DNA of 13,766 nucleotides, from UHGV virus genome UHGV-0072288; one strand, written 5' to 3'. Positions 1-12,583 of the stretch are shown piece by piece. Positions within the stretch are counted from its first letter, which is position 1; each line of letters opens with the position of its first letter. Below the pieces are notes generated by a model. The model was not told where the DNA came from. It did no database searches and worked only from the letters and a program-made list of their open reading frames with translations. Source of the stretch: a virus. Both the position numbers and the translations under genes were made by a program.

Positions 1-42
1 TTTAGTACAGTACCCGTACTGTTTTCACGCTGTCAACAAAAA

Positions 43-61
43 ACGCGCCCGAAGGTGCGTT
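43..61 (-). terminator. Possible intrinsic terminator downstream of int (minus-strand transcript)
   Basis: Imperfect GC-rich hairpin ACGCGCC-CGAA-GGTGCGT at 43-60. An A6 run at 38-43 on the + strand gives a U-run after the stem on the minus-strand RNA. About 85 nt past the int stop. Stem has one mismatch on the minus-strand RNA. Confidence 0.3.
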
Positions 62-1504: not shown

Positions 1505-1612
1505 GGTTCTTGTATCGCAACTATTATTGGTTCTTACAAAAGAACCTTGACAAAAGAACCCTAGAACGACTTAAAGCGCCCTAGGAACCCAAACTAACGA
1601 AGGATACCACAG
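1505..1612. promoter_or_regulatory. Divergent Pc/Pe-type promoter-operator region between C and cox
   Basis: -35-like TTGACA at 1547-1552. Inverted repeat GGTTCTTACAAAAGAACC at 1529-1546. Repeated hexamer AGAACC/GGTTCT at 1505-1510, 1529-1534, 1541-1546, 1555-1560, 1584-1589. SD GAAGGA at 1599-1604, 8 nt before the cox ATG. Confidence 0.5.
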
Positions 1613-3056: not shown

Positions 3057-3095
3057 TTTTTGCCTTTTACCCATTATTTCACATCTGGATTATTT

Positions 3096-5753
3096 ATGAA
3101 CGAAACGATACAACAGGACGTTGTGCGCCGTCTTGTTCGGGACTTTGAATTTAAAGAGCGGGATAAGTATTTGCAGCAGGGCGTTTGCCCTGCCTGTCGT
3201 AAGCGCGAATTATTTACCAGCATAGAAAAGCCCTGGATTCTGAAATGTGGCCGTGAAAATAACTGCGCACATCAGATTGTCGTGAAAGAGCTGTATCCGG
3301 ATATCTTTGAAGACTGGTCAAAACGTTACCAGACCACAGAAGATAACCCCCATGCAGTAGCTGAGGCGTATCTGCGCGAGGCCAGAGGGCTGGAGACTGA
3401 GCCATTAAAAGGCTGTTTTACCCAGGGTGCATTCGTGAAAGATGGCATGGGGTCGGCAACGGTCAGATTTTCGCTGTCATGCGGTGCAACATGGGAGCGC
3501 ATCATTGACCAGCCGCAGCGCTTCGGTAAGCAGAAAGCCAACATCAGGGGAAGCTATGTCGGTCACTGGTGGGTTCCTCCCTTTATCAACCTGCAGGAAG
3601 TGAACGAAATCTGGATCACTGAGGGAATCTTCAACGCGCTGAGTCTGTGCCAGGTAGGGTTACCTGCAGTTGCCACACTGAGCAGTAACAACTATCCGCT
3701 GGCCGCACTGGATACGCTGGCCAAAGAACTGGGTGAAAAACCACGTCCACGTCTTGTATGGGCGTTTGACGGCGATAAAGCCGGCACAAAGCACACACTG
3801 GCGTTCGCTGCCCGTAGTGATGCTGCAGGATGGAAAACTCGTGCCGCGCAGCCGGTGAAATCATCGGCATCGCTGGACTGGAATGACCTGTTGTTACGTA
3901 ACCGGTTCAGTAAGTCGGACATTAAAAATTATCGCTACTATGGCGATCTCCTTCTGGCAAAAAGCCCGACTGAGAAAGCGCTGCTCATGCATCAGCATAA
4001 CGAGTGGCACTCGTTCTACTTTGAGCATAACTCCCGCATGTACTGGTTTGAGCTGGATCTGGACAGGTATATGCGAGCCTATGAGCGCATCACCAATACC
4101 GGTACCGAAGTGGTGATGGAGTGGGAGGCCAAAGAACGGGCGGTTAAAGAGTCAGGCGGCGTGACCGAAATAGCTAACTGCTGGCTGACGCCGCTTTACT
4201 TTCAGCGGTCTGAACCTACGGACGAGTCCTGGTATTACGTGAAAGTCAGTATGCCTAACCGGCCAGCCGTGAAAGATACTTTCACGGCTAATCAGCTCAC
4301 CAGCTCCGCCGAGTTCAAAAAGCGTCTGCTGCACATCGCCAAAGGGGCGGTGTACACAGGCAGCACCAAACAGCTGGATAAGTTCATCCAGATGCGCCTC
4401 CCTGAAATCAAAGAGGTAAAGACGCAGAATTTCATCGGCTATAACAAGGATTATGCCGCCTGGTTGTTTAACCGCGTGGCCGTTTGCGATGGCCGGCTGT
4501 ATGAGATGAACGACGAGGATTACTTCGAAATCAACAGTGCCAGCGTTAAGAGCCTGAGCCTCACGCCGGCGCTGGATCTGAATCCGAAGCTGAACGAGTT
4601 TACTACGGGTTGGGTAGACGATATCTGGACGGCATTTGGTGAAAAAGGGTATGTGGCGCTGGCGTTCTGGCTGGGGTCGCTGTTTGCCGAACAAATCCGC
4701 GAGCGTGACAAGTCATTTCCGTTTCTGGAAATCGTGGGCGAGCCGGGGACAGGTAAATCCACGCTGATAGAATTTCTCTGGAAGCTCGCCGGCCGTGAGG
4801 AATACGAAGGGTTTGACCCATCTAAATCTACCGCCGCCGCGCGTGGCCGTAACTTCGCCCAGGTCGGTAATCTGCCGGTTGTGCTGATTGAGGGCGACCG
4901 TACTACCGATAACGCCAAGCAACGCGCTTTTGACTGGGACGAGCTGAAATCACTGTATAACGGTCGTGCCTCCCGCGCCGTGGGTATCAAATCGAACAAT
5001 AACGAGACGTATGAGCCGCCGTTCAGGGGAAGTATTGTGATAGCGCAAAATGCCGACACAGACGGCAGCAAGGCGTTTCTGGAGCGTATCATCCACATCT
5101 ATACCGACAAGCGCGGCCAGTCCATTCAGACGCGCCACGCTGCAGAACGACTTGAACAACTCCCCGTTAGCCAGGTATCCGGATTCACATTACTGGCCAC
5201 CATGCGCGAAAAAGAAATCATGCAGACGTTCGGCAGGGGGTACGAGCGAGCTAGGAATGAGCTGGAGTCTAATAGCAGTATTCGCCATATCCGTATTGCA
5301 AAGAATCACGCGCAGCTTGTGGGCTTGCTGGAGGCGCTTGCACTTGTTGTACCGGTGCCGGTTGAACGTATAGAAAAAACGCGTGAAGCCATCACCGCGC
5401 TGGCCGTTGAACGTTGTCAGGCACTTAAAAAGGATCATCCTCTGGTGCAGGAGTTCTGGGAGCTGTTTGATTACTTGGATGAACTGGCACCTTATGGCAT
5501 CAATCATTCATCAGATGAAAATGAAATCGCGGTTAATTTCAATCACATGGAAGAGGTCGCCGCAGCACACCGGCAGCGTATTCCGTTCACGTTAACGGAA
5601 ATTAAAAAGCTGCTTAAAAACGGCAATGAGCGCCGGTTTATCAGACAAAGCACCACGCGCAGCGCGGTAAGTGAGCGCCATAATCGTGGTAAAGGGGATA
5701 TGCAACGGATGCCGGAAACATTCCGCTGCTGGATATTTGGCCGGGAAAAGTAA
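3096..5753 (+). CDS. Replication primase-helicase (zinc-ribbon + TOPRIM primase + SF3/D5-type helicase), P4 alpha-like architecture
   Basis: N-terminal Cys4 zinc ribbon (CPAC...CGRENNC). TOPRIM motifs (WITEGIFNAL; VWAFDGDKAG). C-terminal P-loop NTPase with Walker A GEPGTGKST, Walker B PVVLIEGD and motif C IVIAQNAD. The tool starts at TTG 3060; ATG 3096 (MNETIQQ) preferred. Confidence 0.85.
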   Translation: MNETIQQDVVRRLVRDFEFKERDKYLQQGVCPACRKRELFTSIEKPWILKCGRENNCAHQIVVKELYPDIFEDWSKRYQTTEDNPHAVAEAYLREARGLETEPLKGCFTQGAFVKDGMGSATVRFSLSCGATWERIIDQPQRFGKQKANIRGSYVGHWWVPPFINLQEVNEIWITEGIFNALSLCQVGLPAVATLSSNNYPLAALDTLAKELGEKPRPRLVWAFDGDKAGTKHTLAFAARSDAAGWKTRAAQPVKSSASLDWNDLLLRNRFSKSDIKNYRYYGDLLLAKSPTEKALLMHQHNEWHSFYFEHNSRMYWFELDLDRYMRAYERITNTGTEVVMEWEAKERAVKESGGVTEIANCWLTPLYFQRSEPTDESWYYVKVSMPNRPAVKDTFTANQLTSSAEFKKRLLHIAKGAVYTGSTKQLDKFIQMRLPEIKEVKTQNFIGYNKDYAAWLFNRVAVCDGRLYEMNDEDYFEINSASVKSLSLTPALDLNPKLNEFTTGWVDDIWTAFGEKGYVALAFWLGSLFAEQIRERDKSFPFLEIVGEPGTGKSTLIEFLWKLAGREEYEGFDPSKSTAAARGRNFAQVGNLPVVLIEGDRTTDNAKQRAFDWDELKSLYNGRASRAVGIKSNNNETYEPPFRGSIVIAQNADTDGSKAFLERIIHIYTDKRGQSIQTRHAAERLEQLPVSQVSGFTLLATMREKEIMQTFGRGYERARNELESNSSIRHIRIAKNHAQLVGLLEALALVVPVPVERIEKTREAITALAVERCQALKKDHPLVQEFWELFDYLDELAPYGINHSSDENEIAVNFNHMEEVAAAHRQRIPFTLTEIKKLLKNGNERRFIRQSTTRSAVSERHNRGKGDMQRMPETFRCWIFGREK

Positions 5754-5766
5754 CGGTTCACTAGTG

Positions 5767-5831
5767 CCTAACTTTATTGTTAGGGGAAGGAGCGAACATT
5801 GAAGCAATAGGGGCGTTATCTTTATTGCTTC
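5767..5831. terminator. Two hairpins between convergent primase-helicase and glycosyltransferase genes (candidate terminators)
   Basis: Hairpin CCTAAC-TTTATT-GTTAGG at 5767-5784. Hairpin GAAGCAATA-(13 nt)-TATTGCTTC at 5801-5831 followed by a T-rich stretch on the + strand. The second overlaps the stop of the minus-strand gene. Confidence 0.4.
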
Positions 5832-6541
5832 ATTCTTATTTTAAAGTTCTTTAATTTACCGTACAGAGTATCCCGCAGGGAAAACGAAGGAACCCAATCA
5901 AAACCAGTACGCCAGGGGCGTGGACTGCCATGAAAGCAAACAACCGCCACATTATCAGGGACTTTCCCTGTCGCAGCCTCAGAGGCTAAATTTGCATTGA
6001 AGCCAATCATCGAGGGGGTGGCGATGTCACATTTATAACTAACAATTGAGCCAGGAATGATATCCTGCCATAGGGCTGGTTTTATGATGCTACCGAGAAA
6101 TCCCTGATCACCCCATTTGTCTTCAGTCTGACAATTGCGCATAATTTTCTCAGGATCAATAATGAATTGTTCCCAAATCGTCTTTTTAATCGACGCCGGA
6201 ATCATCATTATTGATGAGTTTACTCTTGAGGCATGGTTAAACTCCCGAAGCATTGTAAATTTCTTCGCACCTTCGAAAATATGAATATCTCCCGTGACCA
6301 CAACATCTACGTCAAAATAGAGTAAATCTTGGTCTCCAAGGACTGGGTGATTAGGATTAAATAGTTCAATTTTAGACCACCATCCCGGCCAGTTATAAAG
6401 CAAAGGGGTTGTGTTAACTCCAGGAATATTATCTGCATCGGTTAAACATATAGATGGAATATCTTTGAACTGACGATGAAGCCATTGGGCGTGTTTAGGG
6501 GTAAACTCTTTACTACATTTAAGAACTGAGACTATTAACAT
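5822..6541 (-). CDS. GT-A fold nucleotide-sugar glycosyltransferase-like protein (GT8-like motifs), hotspot cargo
   Basis: 239-aa ORF with strong SD (GGGAGG 6 nt before ATG at 6541). DxD motif after a hydrophobic strand (LLYFDVDVVV). C-terminal FHGSPRPW resembling the GT8 H-x-G-x-x-K/R-P-W motif. Noticeably AT-rich. Confidence 0.6.
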   Translation of the reverse strand: MLIVSVLKCSKEFTPKHAQWLHRQFKDIPSICLTDADNIPGVNTTPLLYNWPGWWSKIELFNPNHPVLGDQDLLYFDVDVVVTGDIHIFEGAKKFTMLREFNHASRVNSSIMMIPASIKKTIWEQFIIDPEKIMRNCQTEDKWGDQGFLGSIIKPALWQDIIPGSIVSYKCDIATPSMIGFNANLASEAATGKVPDNVAVVCFHGSPRPWRTGFDWVPSFSLRDTLYGKLKNFKIRMKQ

Positions 6542-6600: not shown

Positions 6601-6655
6601 CACTTGGTCATTCATCGACGTTGATAGATGGGAATCTGTTACATCTCAGAAAATA

Positions 6656-6680
6656 AAAGCACCGGTAGCGGTGCTTTTTT
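6656..6680. terminator. Bidirectional rho-independent terminator
   Basis: Stem GCACCG/CGGTGC (6659-6664 / 6669-6674), extendable with A-T pairs, loop GTAG. T6 at 6675-6680 on the + strand and AAAATAAAA at 6650-6658 (U-run for the minus-strand transcript). Immediately follows the stop of the Ogr-like gene. Confidence 0.65.
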
Positions 6681-7010
6681 CTATGCGGCAGCAGTGCCGT
6701 CCTGACTCAGAAACTTTAACATCAGCTGCTTTTGCTGGATATCAAGGCTGTTACAGATAGTGGCGATCAACGCATCGCTGGATTTGGCGCTGGGGCTGAT
6801 GGTATGTGAGAATGTCATATTCATCACAAAAGTGTGACCACATTCAACATCGGTACACGCGCAATATAAATCCGACAGTTCCTTGTGTTTTCGGGCTGTT
6901 TTTTTGATAACAGCCCTTGCCTCACATACCGGACAGTAAACCTTCATTACCCGCATATCCATCGCTCCGGAAGTTGGAAAACGATGATATTTTAGCCTTT
7001 TTGCGAACAT
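6681..7010 (-). CDS. ogr: Ogr/Delta-family zinc-finger protein (late-gene transcription activator family)
   Basis: CPVC-x22-CACTDVEC-GHTFV pattern matching P2 Ogr (CPLC...CQNVNCSATFI, from memory). Start ATG at 7010 overlaps the portal stop (TAATG) with SD GGAAGGTG upstream. Alternative internal starts at 6956/6947 would give an Ogr-sized ~88-91 aa protein. Confidence 0.65.
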   Translation of the reverse strand: MFAKRLKYHRFPTSGAMDMRVMKVYCPVCEARAVIKKTARKHKELSDLYCACTDVECGHTFVMNMTFSHTISPSAKSSDALIATICNSLDIQQKQLMLKFLSQDGTAAA

Positions 7011-8028
7011 TAATCACCTTCCAGCTCACTGTCTTTCAGGAAATTAAGGTACAGGTGGGGCGGTACATCACTTTCCTGTTCCACTGCGGCGGTAAACATG
7101 CGCTGAATGGGCAAAATTTCTGCTTTGCGGTAGGTTTTGGACGCTTTCTCAACATCTCCCATTACTGCGCCGTTCGTCGGGATAATCCCCGCCAGTCCTG
7201 CCGGGAATCGATGCGCGGTCAGTACGTCCTGGGCGCTGATGCTCTTGATGTTCTGAAACTCATCTTTGGCGCTGATATCCCCAATCGGGATAAATTTGAT
7301 GCCGTCCGGATCGCCTTTGGGGATGTTCACAAACATGGTGCTGAAGTTCCCGATCCCCTTTGACTGCTCCAGCTTCTGAATAATTTCTTCTTCCACTTCA
7401 TCAGTCATATTTGGGTCGTTACAGTAGATCATGCCACCTGTGTGTCCGCCGTTATGGTAGTAACGCCGACGAAAAATTGTTGCCTCACCGTTAAGCAGGG
7501 CAGAATGGATACCGCTGATATAATCCGGCAGACCATAAATCGCCTGTTGCGGATCGTACTGCCTGAGAAAAATAATATCTTCAGGCGGATAAATCATCGG
7601 TTCACCCTGCTGCAGTACCACAAACTCCCCGGTCTTACGCTGGCGGGTGAAGTGGAAGCCGGGGGTTACGGTCCCCCCCCCCCCCCCCAGCCGTTACGCA
7701 CTTTCAGAATGGCCACATCACCGAAGGTCAGCCAGTCGAACACGGCTGCACCAAGCTGTTCATGCGTCAGTCCGCCGTCTTTATAGTTTGCCGTCACCAT
7801 ATTGCGACGGGCATACAGCACACCGCCGTGCTGCGCGTTCAGGTTCACCAGTTGCGCCAGCGCCAGCCGGTCAATCGGGAGCGTCCAGTGTTCCGCTTCA
7901 TTGTCATACCAGACGTCTGTGTAGTTTGTGCCGGTCGTCAGAATGGGTTCCGGTTTACCCAGGGTAATAAGGCTCATATGGCGCGGCTTGCTGGCGGTGC
8001 GGCGTTCCCTGTATTTCCGTTTTTTCAT
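7010..8028 (-). pseudogene. Q: Portal protein (P2 gpQ-like), frame interrupted by a 16-nt homopolymer
   Basis: Two minus-strand ORFs (7666-8028 and 7010-7621) together give ~340 aa, matching the ~344-aa P2 portal. The upstream frame reads ...LKVRNGWGGGGGP-stop through the G16 tract. The downstream frame is open back through the tract (...GGGGGTVTPGFHFTRQRKTGEFVVLQQGEPM...). ATGA overlap with the terminase stop at 8025-8028. Confidence 0.8.
7673..7688. repeat. Homopolymeric tract C16 (+ strand) = G16 in the portal coding sense
   Basis: Direct count: 16 consecutive C at 7673-7688. Tract lengths of 14 or 17 would join the two portal reading frames; the observed 16 does not. Confidence 0.95.
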
Positions 8029-9158
8029 GCTGCTTTCCCTAAGTTACCCCAGCGTGATTTTCGCTGGTTTTCAAAGTTTAATGGCTCGTTGTCAATGGCA
8101 TGGGCGATAGCCCAGAAACTGTCTGCGTGTCCTGTTTCTGCTGTGCGATCGGCGACGAAAGTCATTGCGTTGCCGCTGGCCGTGGACGTACGGCGGATGG
8201 TCATAAAGCTGGCGGCGATTTCGGTCTTCTCCTTATCCCATTCCACGCGGCCGTCTTCGATAACGTCGATCATCTTCATCACCAGACGATTTTTGGTCTC
8301 GACGCCGTAGCGGATCGCCACTGCCTGACGCATGGCAAAGTGCTGAACGTCTTCAAAGACACCGCTACCCAGTCCAGTGATATCAATGCCGATGTAGGTC
8401 ATGTTGTACTGGCCAAACAGCTTCTTAATCTGTGCCGCCTGCCACTTCCAGTTCATCCCCTGCCAGTGGAATACACGCAGTACCCGAAATTTTTCGCCGG
8501 CCACTATCGGCGGCGCGATGATCACGAAGGTGGAGGTGTCTCCGCTGCGAGCCGGGTCATAACCCGCCCACACTTCACGGTTGCCGAACGGCCGGGGCAG
8601 GTTTTCGTCATGATCCTCCCAGAAATACCAGGTTGCACCAATCTGGCGGCTTTTCAGGATGTTCCTGATTTGCTGATGAAGATTAGCGCGAAGGTGTTTC
8701 TGGTAACCGAAAAGGTGCTCCAGCGCGAACCGGTCAAAATCTTCCTGTGTCAGTCCGCTGATGTCGTTCTTTTTGTACTTGCCACGTTTCCGGGGCTTTT
8801 CGTCGCCACCGGACTGACGCGCCGGCGCATCATTTTCACTGTGTTTAATTTCTGCCAGCTTTTCCTGATGCTTATTGTGCTGTGCACGTAGTTTCACCAG
8901 GTGAGAAACGAGACTGTCCAGCTCCCGCAGCTCCAGCTCCGATTTCCCTTCACGTAATGTCAGTGACTGAATGCGACGGTTTAATGCATCTTCGGTGGAT
9001 TCATGACTGAGTAATTCCGCCCAGCAATATTTCTCCGCCCAGTAATAGACAATGCGTCTGTTAGGCAGATTAAGTTCGCTGGCAATTTCCTGCGGGGTAT
9101 AGCGTTTTAAATAAAGCGCCCGCGCAACGCCTTTTAATTCTTCTGAATATTTAGCCAT
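8025..9158 (-). CDS. P: Terminase large subunit (P2 gpP-like), apparently shortened: N-terminal HTH plus C-terminal nuclease, ATPase core largely missing
   Basis: N-terminal HTH (YTPQEIASELNLPNRRIVYYW). Deviant Walker-A-like KSRQIGAT followed almost immediately by nuclease-type motifs (AGYDPARSGDTSTFVI; YIGIDITGLGSG; HADSFWAIAHA). 378-382 aa versus ~590 aa recalled for P2 gpP. Start uncertain (GTG 9173 or ATG 9158, neither with a good SD). Confidence 0.65.
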   Translation of the reverse strand: MAKYSEELKGVARALYLKRYTPQEIASELNLPNRRIVYYWAEKYCWAELLSHESTEDALNRRIQSLTLREGKSELELRELDSLVSHLVKLRAQHNKHQEKLAEIKHSENDAPARQSGGDEKPRKRGKYKKNDISGLTQEDFDRFALEHLFGYQKHLRANLHQQIRNILKSRQIGATWYFWEDHDENLPRPFGNREVWAGYDPARSGDTSTFVIIAPPIVAGEKFRVLRVFHWQGMNWKWQAAQIKKLFGQYNMTYIGIDITGLGSGVFEDVQHFAMRQAVAIRYGVETKNRLVMKMIDVIEDGRVEWDKEKTEIAASFMTIRRTSTASGNAMTFVADRTAETGHADSFWAIAHAIDNEPLNFENQRKSRWGNLGKAA

Positions 9159-9301
9159 GCACACATTATGCACGGGCGTTTGTATATTAAATCCCGCTTT
9201 ATTTCTGATGTGTTCGGCTAATAGCCTATATCCGAAATGAAGTGAATGCGGCGGTTAATTTTATTGGCGATACTGAAAACCGCAGCATGAACGGAGGCAA
9301 T
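9159..9301. promoter_or_regulatory. Divergent late-promoter region between terminase (P) and scaffold (O) genes
   Basis: Position equals the P2 divergent P/O late-promoter interval. Strong SD GGAGG at 9294-9298 before the O ATG. No TGT-N12-ACA Ogr-type dyad found by eye. Confidence 0.35.
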
Positions 9302-10141
9302 ATGTCAGGTTCACAACTGGCAACAAACTGGATTTGTATCGCCACTGCGGGTGAAACGGTTGATAAGCGATTTATTGAAGAACAATGGTTGCTTGATGCC
9401 GCTGAATTATATGACCCCTCTTTGTATACCGCGCTGTTATGGCCGGAACATTCCCGTAATTTCGGGAATATGGGGGAGGTGCTGGAAGTAAAAGCCGAGC
9501 GGGATGATGAAGGTATTCTTCGTTTATATGCCCGCCTCTGTCCGGCGATTTCATTGCTACAGGCAAATGCAGACGGTCAGCTTTTATTTTTATCACCGGA
9601 GTTTACACCGGACGGCAATTTCAGAAATACCGGGAAAACCTATCTTGAGGGACTGGCCATTACTGACAGTCCGGCCGGGGTAAGCACCACACGGTTACGT
9701 TTCAGCCGCACCAGGGGAAAACGCATCGGACCATACAAGCCGCTGGCGTTTGATGAAGTCAGGGAATTTAAAAAGGAAAAGGGAATGTCAAAGACAGCGA
9801 AAAAGGGCTGGCGCCATTTTTTCAGTATCGAAGAACCGGAGCAGACCCCGGAGCAGGAACCTTCACAGTCTGATGCCTTACAGGCGCTGGCTGAAGCGCT
9901 GGATGCCATTGATAAGCGCGTATCTGCTATTGAAACCCGTCTGGGTGAGGCGGAAGAAGCGGTATCTGATGTGCAGGACGATGTGGACACCGTGAAGGAA
10001 GTAGTGGACACCGAAGATTTTGCGCGTCTGGTGGGGAACCTGCCGGAGCTGGTGAAAAACTTCAGCAAGCTGAATAACAAAGTTACTCAACTGCCGGACA
10101 AGAAATTCAGCAAGGGCAAAAAAGGCTTCAATTTCCTGTAA
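9302..10141 (+). CDS. O: Capsid scaffolding protein (P2 gpO-like)
   Basis: 279 aa from ATG 9302 with GGAGG SD; the tool's 9242 start is GTG. N-terminal region resembles gpO and the C-terminal half is acidic/coiled-coil (EEAVSDVQDDVDTVKEVVDTEDF). Sits between terminase and major capsid genes. Confidence 0.75.
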   Translation: MSGSQLATNWICIATAGETVDKRFIEEQWLLDAAELYDPSLYTALLWPEHSRNFGNMGEVLEVKAERDDEGILRLYARLCPAISLLQANADGQLLFLSPEFTPDGNFRNTGKTYLEGLAITDSPAGVSTTRLRFSRTRGKRIGPYKPLAFDEVREFKKEKGMSKTAKKGWRHFFSIEEPEQTPEQEPSQSDALQALAEALDAIDKRVSAIETRLGEAEEAVSDVQDDVDTVKEVVDTEDFARLVGNLPELVKNFSKLNNKVTQLPDKKFSKGKKGFNFL

Positions 10142-11214: not shown

Positions 11215-12252
11215 ATGCAACTGTCACCGGCACAGCGCCACAGCGCACGAATTGAAGCGGAGCGGTTACTGCGACAGCAGCAGTCTCTGGACACGGAAAC
11301 CAGCCTGCATATTCAGATTGTCGCGCTGGAGAAAGATGTCGCCGCAGCTGCAGCGATTGAAAGCCGCGCTGAGCGAATGGAATTTAAGCGTGATGTGCTG
11401 TTACCGCGCTGGATGCCAACCGCGCAAGCCGGGACGGTTATCCAGACAGAGCGCATTAACGGTCGCGTGTATGAGCTGGCCACCAGTGAGGATGTAGTGA
11501 TCGCTTCCGGTACGGCCTGCGCATTACTGCCGGTAAAAGCCACCGGCACCGGGGGCGCATATAACCTTGCGCCGGGATATTACCGCATTCTGCCGGTTGC
11601 CGTTGACGGTATCAGCCACGTGGCCAGCGAAGAAAACTGGCTGACCGTACCGGGCGCGGATGAAGAAAGTGATGACGAGCTGCGCGAACGCTGCCGCAAT
11701 CAGTTCAATCTGGTGGGGAATTACCACACTGACGCCGTTTACCGGTCGATGATTGCCGGCGTTGCAGGGCTGAGTATTGACCGGATTTTCTTTGAACATG
11801 AAGCGCCGAGGGGACCCGGTACCGCCAACGCGTATCTGTTGCTGGACAGCGGGGTGGCTTCTTCGCCGTTCGTGGATGCCGTCAATGACTATATCAACAC
11901 GCAGGGGCATCACGGCCACGGTGATGATATGCAGTGCTATCCCATGCCGGAAACGCTTCATGATCTGTCCGTCACAGTTTATGTCAAAAATCTGGCCAAT
12001 TTCAGCGATGAGGACAGGAAAACCCTGAAGGACGGGGTGGAGAACATGATCCGCTGTGCTTTTCGTGAGAATGCTGATTATGACGTCAGGAAGACGTGGC
12101 CATATTCGCGTTTTTCCTTTTCTCAGCTGGGGCGGGAGATCCACAGGACATTTGCTCAGACGGAATCACTGTCTTTTTCACTGGGTGATATCACCAGCGA
12201 ACTGAGTGTTCCACGCCTGAAATCGCTTGCGGTTGTTGTTGAAAATGAGTGA
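11215..12252 (+). CDS. Chimeric ORF: terminase small/endonuclease subunit (gpM-like) N-terminus (~73 aa) fused to a baseplate protein J-like body
   Basis: N-terminus MQLSPAQRH...KRDVLLPRWMP matches the gpM start (MTSPAQRH...KRELLPFWLPW, from memory). The remainder (...ESDDELRERCRNQF...GVASSPFVDAVNDYI...) resembles P2 gpJ (...ESDTDYRLRIQQAF...GVASEDLLAVVRNAL...). Implies an in-frame deletion of the M-to-J interval. Confidence 0.5.
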   Translation: MQLSPAQRHSARIEAERLLRQQQSLDTETSLHIQIVALEKDVAAAAAIESRAERMEFKRDVLLPRWMPTAQAGTVIQTERINGRVYELATSEDVVIASGTACALLPVKATGTGGAYNLAPGYYRILPVAVDGISHVASEENWLTVPGADEESDDELRERCRNQFNLVGNYHTDAVYRSMIAGVAGLSIDRIFFEHEAPRGPGTANAYLLLDSGVASSPFVDAVNDYINTQGHHGHGDDMQCYPMPETLHDLSVTVYVKNLANFSDEDRKTLKDGVENMIRCAFRENADYDVRKTWPYSRFSFSQLGREIHRTFAQTESLSFSLGDITSELSVPRLKSLAVVVENE

Positions 12253-12583
12253 GTTCCTGAAAAAGCTGGCCGGGATGGTGCTTCCTTCCTGGATGAACAA
12301 AGGCGAGCCGGCGAAGCTGCTGAAAACGGCGCGGCGGTTCTGGACTGAGGTTTACGGCTGGGTTACGTGGCCAGTGAATCAGTTCGATCCGCTGACGTGT
12401 ACGCCGGCATTACTGAACCTGCTGGCGTATGACCGCGATATACCGACCTGCTTTTGCGCTGGTTTACCGGTTATGTTGAACGTTCACAACCAGCTGAAAA
12501 CGGTTATCAGCGTCTGTTCATTCGTGAGCTGGCCGGTGTTTTTGAAAGGATGTGGCCATGTTCATTTCAGCACCCGACATTAA
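12245..12583 (+). CDS. Tail protein I-like (gpI / YmfQ family), C-terminal part doubtful
   Basis: ATG 12245 overlaps the upstream stop (ATGAGTGA). N-terminal ~65 aa (...VNQFDPLTCTPALLNLLAYDRDI) resembles gpI (...WNPDTCPANLLPWLAWAFSVDRWD). After ~12440 the frame is Cys-rich and atypical, while frame 2 opens at 12433 and stays open to the window end. Confidence 0.45.
   Translation: MSEFLKKLAGMVLPSWMNKGEPAKLLKTARRFWTEVYGWVTWPVNQFDPLTCTPALLNLLAYDRDIPTCFCAGLPVMLNVHNQLKTVISVCSFVSWPVFLKGCGHVHFSTRH

Follow-up and report, generated by a model that had tools for sequence, protein, structure and literature searches.

A portal-adjacent Ogr/Delta-family gene in a decayed ESSI2_ev239-like prophage and its likely role as single late activator

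Introduction

Does a small zinc-finger gene that begins on the stop codon of a phage portal gene represent an unusual arrangement, and what would such a gene do? The question is raised by a stretch of viral DNA of 13,766 nucleotides (virus genome UHGV-0072288), which as a whole is called the window here. In P2, late promoters are activated by Ogr, which binds to inverted repeats with their centre near -55 and makes contact with the RNA polymerase alpha subunit (PMC3152322). A first-pass annotation of the window took P2 as its reference and regarded the place of the gene as atypical, reading it as a relocated or second activator of late genes or as a satellite-type Delta. We consider it very probable that the gene encodes the single Ogr/Delta-family late activator of an ESSI2_ev239-like prophage, situated immediately after the portal gene, where it closes a leftward terL-portal late operon. 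In what follows, the family of the protein, the state of the prophage, the position and copy number of the gene, its possible starts and its putative target are considered in turn.

Family of the encoded protein

6681-7010, minus strand: Ogr/Delta-family zinc-finger gene, long form, 109 aa (Pfam, PHROG and hhalign)

The 109-aa protein matches the Pfam family Ogr_Delta (PF04606) with an E value of 1.1e-15 and 57.7 bits against a cut-off of 26.3, its residues 26-71 aligning with positions 2-47 of the 47 in the profile. It also matches PHROG 603, described as 'transcriptional regulator', with an E value of 2.5e-38 over residues 1-103. The cysteines C26, C29, C52 and C57 are spaced as CX2C-X22-CX4C and, in the alignment, coincide with the Cys4 columns of P2 Ogr, 186 B and both halves of P4 Delta; the Ogr-type cysteine pattern that had been recognized from the sequence alone is therefore exact. 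An alignment to the Ogr, Delta and B proteins had been proposed as a check, and it was run at the profile-profile level with eight clade members on the clade side. In this comparison hhalign gave a probability of 95.3% and an E value of 2.2e-8 over 44 columns, corresponding to residues 24-67. Taken together, the Pfam, PHROG, cysteine-spacing and profile-profile evidence indicates that the original observation was correct and far above chance, and that the ORF, as judged from its sequence, is a genuine member of the Ogr/Delta family.

The activator reading has a point against it in that the protein is no more than 17-21% identical to P2 Ogr, 186 B and P4 Delta, and this over 44 residues only. 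Identity to the eight clade members amounts to 41-59%, with 14 invariant columns, and extends into the C-terminal SPSAK...helical region; the C-terminal 40 residues are clade-specific. Plain tblastn with the 109-aa protein did not reach P2, a PDB sequence search returned no relative of it, and its single-sequence AlphaFold2 model was uninformative (pLDDT 46). The protein is 100% identical to WP_000457450.1 from an intact E. coli prophage, to which PGAP gives the name "ogr/Delta-like zinc finger family protein" in 18 E. coli genomes. We also considered a designation as the Ogr equivalog, which was ruled out as the match to NCBIfam PRK09678 is sub-threshold, with only 17.6 against 116 bits.

It could be argued that the protein shares the Ogr fold only and is a zinc-ribbon protein with some other job, such as Lar-like restriction alleviation or anti-repression. 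This is very unlikely. Low identity to the characterised activators would fit such a role, as would a weak Pfam match to Lar_restr_allev (E 2.6e-4) and the existence of Proteus copies that lie beside dhaK and have no phage late genes in their 4-kb flanks. Nevertheless, the Lar match (PF14354) reaches 21.6 bits and stays below its cut-off of 28.6, while Ogr_Delta scores 57.7 against 26.3; the cysteine spacing is the same as in Ogr; these genomes offer no other candidate for a late activator; and the gene co-occurs with a conserved dyad at divergent late promoters in a P2-like layout, as described below.

State of the prophage

In the window lies a decayed ESSI2_ev239-like (Evevirus) prophage, a P2-related prophage of the HP1/K139 type. 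Its genes are arranged in the order integrase, repressor, Cox-like protein, exonuclease, Toprim/DUF5906 primase and glycosyltransferase moron, followed by the regulator and the genes for the portal, the large terminase, the gpO scaffold and P2-family capsid proteins. Where the two align, a prophage beside pheA/pheL in E. coli NT1F10 is 99.7-99.9% identical to it, and 18 complete E. coli genomes contain a 99.3% match to a 2.3-kb probe around the regulator gene. Searches for Rfam families and tRNAs in the window gave no matches. The two genes upstream of the regulator are the following:

7010-8028, minus strand: portal gene (gpQ homologue; Pfam Phage_portal), disrupted in comparison with the intact 339-aa portal of locus L003
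8025-9158, minus strand: large terminase gene terL (gpP homologue), first gene of the leftward late operon, with matches to Pfam Terminase_5 and Terminase_6C only

The portal pseudogene is split into two pieces, 7010-7621 and 7666-8028, by a divergent patch of 34 nt at 7649-7682, which includes a C16 run and has lost 1 nt. In terL, an internal deletion of 642 bp relative to L003 (junction ~8621-8626) has removed the ATPase part. Comparison with the intact copy further reveals a 1-bp insertion in int at 555, a deletion of 8.2 kb that fuses gpM to baseplate J at ~11428-11433, and another deletion of ~3.9 kb at ~12437-12441. Damage thus affects int, the portal gene, terL, gpM and most tail genes. 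The activator gene is unchanged with respect to the intact E. coli copy and, as the prophage in the window is defective, it is most likely a recent relic.

Position after the portal gene

The succession of portal and regulator, which had been described as atypical, turned out to be the rule within the HP1/K139/ESSI-2 branch of Peduoviridae. Nucleotide and protein searches of a phage collection found the pair in Escherichia phages ESSI2_ev239, ev015, ev040 and ev129, in Cronobacter ESSI-2, Yersinia vB_YenM_324 and Salmonella SW3, SW5 and SI7, and also in Vibrio K139, Kappa and PV94, Aeromonas phiO18P, Pasteurella F108 and Haemophilus HP2. According to the annotated records of ESSI-2, YenM_324 and SW5, the regulator overlaps the portal stop on the same strand. 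The distance is 61-66 nt past the portal gene in phiO18P and HP2 (in the latter the regulator is unannotated), and in K139 one small ORF, orf14, lies between the two genes. The intact E. coli prophage has the same 1-nt overlap in its PGAP annotation, there with the intact 339-aa portal gene. We also scanned one genome per species, which yielded 80 loci from Enterobacterales, Aeromonas and Vibrionaceae together with a few metagenome bins labelled otherwise. A P2-type portal gene is found immediately upstream in 53 of the 80 loci and 0.8-2.9 kb upstream in five, and the remaining 22 have no portal gene within 4 kb.

The order portal-regulator has been stated for K139 and Smhb1 (PMC8537503), and in Burkholderia P2-like phages ogr is found among the early genes (PMC3091744). 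From the P2-type, HP1-type and Burkholderia placements, it follows that the position of ogr differs by clade and is fixed within clades. In this sense, the activator can be called relocated only relative to P2, since within its own clade it occupies the usual place, and an Ogr-like gene after the portal gene is therefore no reason to flag a locus as unusual. The gene, its family and its portal-adjacent position are already known from RefSeq, phage records and the literature.

The same holds for cos, for which no room had been seen past the portal gene. In the record of phiO18P, cosL occupies bases 1-16 and adjoins int; the PV94 genome terminates in cohesive ends of 16 nt, ~13 kb from the portal gene (PMC3986222; phage record coordinates). 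Since cos of the HP1 type adjoins attP, there is no cos problem at this locus. As a side observation, the intact E. coli prophage contains ~1 kb of non-coding DNA past the last tail gene. The sequence CTACACCGCACCCGCC, which lies in non-coding DNA of this intact prophage and outside the window (NZ_CP075462, position 12132 of locus L092), matches phiO18P cosL at 12 of 16 positions; we mention it as a lead only. The cos site would accordingly be expected ~180 nt past the last tail gene and close to attR.

Copy number of the activator

A family HMM was built from all twelve aligned sequences and searched on six-frame translations. It found exactly one Ogr-family ORF in each of the complete genomes of ev239, YenM_324, K139, P2 and 186, the next best match having an E value of at least 0.38; thus no canonical ogr was encountered elsewhere in the complete relatives ev239, YenM_324 and K139. 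In the window, the regulator is flanked by the portal gene and the glycosyltransferase gene, and homologues of gpP, gpQ, gpO and gpN are present. Given one such ORF per genome, a single Cys4 domain and neighbours from the capsid module instead of sid or psu, the regulator is the sole late activator of its phage type.

These results speak against a second late activator, or a satellite-type Delta, existing beside a canonical ogr near att, which we regard as extremely improbable. Such an origin could be suspected because the window carries a P4-alpha-like primase (Toprim plus DUF5906) and because homologues of the regulator adjoin DUF927 primases in satellite-like loci of Pectobacterium, Brenneria and Yersinia. 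However, the same primase belongs to the complete phage ESSI2_ev239. P4 Delta has two domains in tandem and comes from a satellite that lacks a capsid of its own, where sid and psu are its neighbours, whereas the protein described here has a single domain and lies in a prophage with its own portal, terminase, scaffold and capsid genes.

Start codons and promoter of the gene

On the minus strand, the junction of the two genes reads ...GAA GGT GAT TAA TG..., in which the portal stop TAA (7012-7010) and the ATG of the regulator (7010-7008) have base 7010 in common. The claimed start on the portal stop (TAATG) with a Shine-Dalgarno (SD) sequence is borne out:

7013-7020, minus strand: SD sequence AAGGTGAT of the long-form start, complementary to the 3' end of 16S rRNA, 2 nt 5' of the ATG

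At this start, the motif GGTG-N4-ATG is retained in 38 different upstream sequences, with constant spacing to a TAAAAT hexamer that lies within the N-terminal extension. The reading frame contains further elements of interest:

6681-6956, minus strand: alternative short form, 91 aa, from M19 ('MRVMKVYCPVC'), with a conserved ATG at 6956
6965-6968, minus strand: GGAG, SD sequence of the short form, 8 nt upstream of its ATG
6989-6994, minus strand: TAAAAT, conserved -10-like hexamer inside the N-terminal extension, candidate own promoter

Among the 53 portal-adjacent relatives, the short-form position is an ATG in 50 and a GTG in two more, usually with GGAG upstream. ATG 6956 corresponds to the N-terminus of the K139 orf13 and phiO18P gp19 homologues, and for ESSI2_ev239 it is the short-form start that RefSeq annotates. 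TAAAAT is present in 38 of the 53 portal-adjacent loci (all of the Enterobacterales ones but two), 29-41 nt 5' of the short-form ATG. In Enterobacterales, 54 nt separate the portal stop from the second ATG, and TAAAAT is invariant wherever it is found, with flanking codons that vary freely. Proteus copies without a portal gene have a TAATAT/TAAAAT hexamer at the same distance. A strict sigma-70 promoter scan of the minus strand at the portal 3' end found nothing, and a relaxed scan of this region picked out the TAAAAT element only; the start of transcription predicted from it lies near 6982. These data suggest that TAAAAT is the -10 element of a promoter belonging to the gene itself, as in P2, 186 and the putative P13 of K139. 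Against this, TAAAAT might merely encode Leu-Lys of a conserved N-terminal peptide. Regarding repressor control of the kind known from 186 pB, the cI/cox half-site AAGAACC occurs four times at 1505-1560 and none was detected near the regulator gene.

The coupled start is plausible, but because of the conserved second in-frame ATG at 6956 it is one reading of two. The other takes the short form as the sole product, made from the gene's own promoter, with the 18 preceding codons untranslated and the coupling an annotation artefact. We regard this as less likely than not. It agrees with the start codon conserved at 52 of 53 portal-adjacent loci, with the RefSeq choice in ev239 and with the K139, phiO18P and HP2 proteins, which all begin at the short-form position. 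Moreover, the long-form ATG is absent in ~8 of the 38 loci with TAAAAT, and the extension evolves fast at the amino acid level, with TAAAAT kept despite a differing upstream context. What it leaves unexplained is the conservation of GGTG-N4-ATG itself with its fixed spacing to TAAAAT. In addition, in 31 of the 53 loci the frame continues without a stop codon up to an ATG that overlaps the end of the portal gene, in TAATG or ATGA geometry, and the PHROG 603 profile aligns from residue 1. Our own reading is that both routes exist, one from the gene's own promoter to the short form and the other by late read-through to the coupled long form.

Late operon and terminator

6655-6678, minus strand: rho-independent terminator ending the gene and the terL-portal-ogr transcript, with a 10-bp stem containing 5 GC pairs and then a T run

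The strong terminator noticed at the end of the gene was supported by folding: the 51-nt stretch that contains it reaches -17.3 kcal/mol (z = -4.07), a stability attained by none of 200 shuffled sequences. The T runs that flank it on either side suggest that it works in both directions. The regulator forms the 3' end of the terL-portal late operon, and as no terminator intervenes, transcripts from the late promoter could plausibly run on into it and so create positive feedback. Of the feedback loop that had been put forward, this part stands, but the layout is not new, as the records of P2, 186 and P4 already contain it. For P2, the record contains a feature labelled "rho-independent terminator for ogr transcript and F operon", and for 186 it describes tB as "termination of transcription from pB and late promoter". 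Each of the two activator genes, ogr and B, is the last gene before a terminator common with the late operon and has its own promoter in addition. In the P4 record, delta overlaps sid by 4 nt, so that the start of this Ogr-family gene overlaps the stop of the preceding late gene. The P4 sid operon is described as activated by Delta itself, which combines coupling with positive feedback. The 3' end of a late operon is also where P2 ogr and 186 B are regularly found, and delta of P4 is part of the sid operon.

Candidate operator and late promoters

If the protein is an activator, a target would be expected near the late promoters. The gap between the divergent terL and scaffold genes contains two conserved elements:

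9213-9236, no strand assigned: dyad TTCGGCTAATAGCCTATATCCGAA (TTCGG-N14-CCGAA), candidate activator binding site, conserved in the terL/scaffold gap
9269-9274, plus strand: GATACT, conserved -10-like hexamer of a putative rightward late promoter for the scaffold/capsid operon, from an alignment of 25 regions

The dyad is the single exact match to TTCGG-N14-CCGAA in the window. With a spacer of N12-16, it is present once per genome or locus in ev239, YenM_324, the E. coli prophage, K139, ESSI-2 and phiO18P, always in the terL/scaffold gap. Exact dyads are found in ~30 of the 53 portal-adjacent loci, the arms being conserved and the spacers variable. HP2 has the same arms with a 24-nt spacer, within a repeat annotated as "most likely contains promoters for late genes". 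The TTCGG-N12-16-CCGAA dyad is absent from the P2, 186 and P4 genomes. P2 Ogr and 186 B, by contrast, recognise TGT-N12-ACA, of which the window has three matches, all of them intragenic (3.56 expected) and none in the terL/scaffold gap.

The GATACT hexamer came from an alignment of 25 intergenic regions anchored on the dyad, in which GATACT or AATAAT appears ~33 nt downstream of it. The corresponding -35 position, 9246-9251, reads ATGCGG and is weak. With a start predicted near 9281, the dyad centre at 9224.5 would fall at about -57, which is the P2 geometry. Two observations count against this reading of the dyad. On the leftward side, a conserved CATAAT (9170-9165) would put the dyad centre at ~-66 and not at -55; this hexamer lies 6-7 nt before the terL ATG, so that the mRNA would be nearly leaderless if it serves as the leftward -10. 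Furthermore, one dyad per genome contrasts with the four late promoters of P2, and a search allowing one mismatch gave chance level only at the other late operons.

Discussion

Our analysis places the regulator with the annotated portal-adjacent regulators of the HP1/K139/ESSI-2 type and outside the P2/186/P4 subgroup, with which it has neither operator nor gene position in common. Its closest counterparts are ESSI2_ev239 gp26, ESSI-2 gp32, vB_YenM_324 gp11 and the SW5 regulator (43-59% identity, same length class). As here, their start overlaps the portal stop, and they have the TAAAAT, GGAG and ATG elements as well as the same dyad; there is no essential difference, except that here the surrounding prophage is decayed. 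K139 orf13 (a 'zinc-finger protein'), phiO18P gp19 and the HP2 ORF at 9302-9553 have 41-49% identity over the whole short form, C-terminal helices included. They are likewise located downstream of the portal gene and have a TTCGG...CCGAA dyad at the terL/scaffold gap, but they have no N-terminal extension of 18-24 residues and no overlap with the portal stop, from which a gap of 61-270 nt separates them. P2 Ogr and 186 B belong to the same Pfam family, have the same Cys4 spacing and are also sole activators. In contrast, their identity to the protein studied here is 17-19%, they are 72 aa long without the C-terminal helical extension of the 109-aa protein, and their genes come after the tail gene D beside att instead of after the portal gene.

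The sequence data directly show the family of the protein, the conserved gene order, the single copy per genome and the conserved cis elements. Our literature search found no experiment on any clade member, and we therefore infer activation and dyad binding, as well as the promoters and the choice of start codon. By analogy with Ogr, the zinc-finger protein would bind an inverted repeat located ~55 bp before weak late promoters, to which it would bring RNA polymerase via the alpha subunit of the enzyme. Its likely target would be the TTCGG-N14-CCGAA dyad between the divergent terL and scaffold genes, and not the P2-type TGT-N12-ACA. Expression probably follows two routes. In the first, a weak promoter of the gene's own, with TAAAAT (6994-6989) just past the portal stop, would give the 91-aa form from ATG 6956. 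In the second, late read-through from terL and the portal gene would yield the 109-aa form from the ATG on the portal stop, and this second route would close a positive feedback loop as in P2, 186 and P4. Transcripts of both routes would end at the terminator at 6655-6678.

A more elaborate version of this scheme is a dual switch, in which a short activator is made early from the TAAAAT promoter and an N-terminally extended, basic isoform is made late by coupling, both in combination with the clade-specific operator TTCGG-N14-CCGAA. The early and the late activator would therefore differ in sequence. We consider this unlikely; if true, the dual switch with its clade-specific operator would represent an experimentally unstudied variant of Ogr regulation.

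For the annotation of HP1/ESSI-2-type prophages, the present locus indicates that P2 is the wrong template for both gene order and the position of cos. Beyond correct annotation the importance of the finding is small, as the dyad and the arrangement with two starts are modest, testable refinements of a known scheme. In this sense, the dyad and the possible two starts provide a testable handle on late-gene control in this clade.

Decay of the prophage and its ends

The prophage in the window is a decayed version of an intact E. coli prophage, with which it shares 99.7-99.9% identity across the aligned parts and relative to which it carries the following lesions.

Lesions of the window prophage relative to the intact E. 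coli prophage
555: one extra C (+1) in the integrase gene
7649-7682: damage in the portal gene
~8621-8626: 642-bp deletion in terL, the large terminase gene
~11428-11433: ~8.2-kb deletion that joins gpM to baseplate J
~12437-12441: ~3.9-kb deletion that runs from the gpI-like tail gene into the last gene of the tail

The portal gene patch (34 nt) has 16 positions changed and one base deleted with respect to relatives that are near-identical elsewhere, and it includes a stretch of 16 consecutive C. The patch has the look of an artefact from sequencing or assembly, or else of a local rewrite.

We found AAAACGCGCCCGAAGGTGCGTT at window 40-61, flanked by the pheL leader and int, and a second copy of it, identical at 21 of 22 positions, directly before raiA at the opposite end of the intact prophage (14269-14290 of L092, the locus in NZ_CP075462). 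This sequence is likely the att core, with attL at the start of the window. Outside the window, CTACACCGCACCCGCC lies at L092 12132-12147, ~180 nt past the last tail gene, and is identical at 12 of 16 positions to the annotated cosL of phiO18P (CTCATCCGCTCCCGCC); we regard it as a candidate cos for prophages of this type.

Putative regulatory sequences

Four copies of AAGAACC/GGTTCTT, arranged as inverted pairs, occupy window 1505-1560 between the repressor gene (1205-1504) and a cox-like gene (1613-1894), and are probably the immunity operators. Over the window this motif appears 7 times vs 1.6 expected, none of the copies being close to the activator gene. At the terL start, a CATAAT that is conserved in many relatives (9165-9170, minus strand) stands just 6-7 nt 5' of the ATG (9158), with no Shine-Dalgarno sequence, which suggests that the terL mRNA is leaderless or nearly so.

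Accessory and replication genes

The minus-strand gene at 5822-6541, flanked by the replication gene and the terminator of the activator, occupies the slot that in P2 is filled by old/tin. Its 239-aa product, for which Pfam gave no match, hits PHROG 1962 'glycosyltransferase' (moron) with E 6e-81; it is likely a lysogenic-conversion gene having its own promoter. The replication gene (3060-5753, plus strand, 897 aa) is of the primase type (Toprim + DUF5906), as in ESSI2_ev239, whereas ESSI-2, YenM_324, SW5 and K139 encode a P2 gpA-type nickase in its place. This difference is a replication-module swap inside the clade.

Activator homologues in other gene neighbourhoods

In 13 Proteus genomes (loci L041, L044-L053, L055), an activator homologue that corresponds to the short form (91 aa in the window) lies directly 5' of dhaK, retaining a TAATAT/TAAAAT hexamer ~40 nt 5' of its ATG, and no P2-type portal or capsid genes were found in its 4-kb flanks. 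This copy may have been orphaned or domesticated, or may mark the edge of an island. In Pectobacterium, Brenneria and Yersinia aldovae (loci L036, L038, L040, L056), activator homologues are located ~300 nt 3' of a DUF927/Toprim primase-helicase, the next gene at L036 encoding an AbiEii-like AAA ATPase. This gene order resembles that of a satellite or island, and therefore satellites, too, may have captured the activator of this clade.
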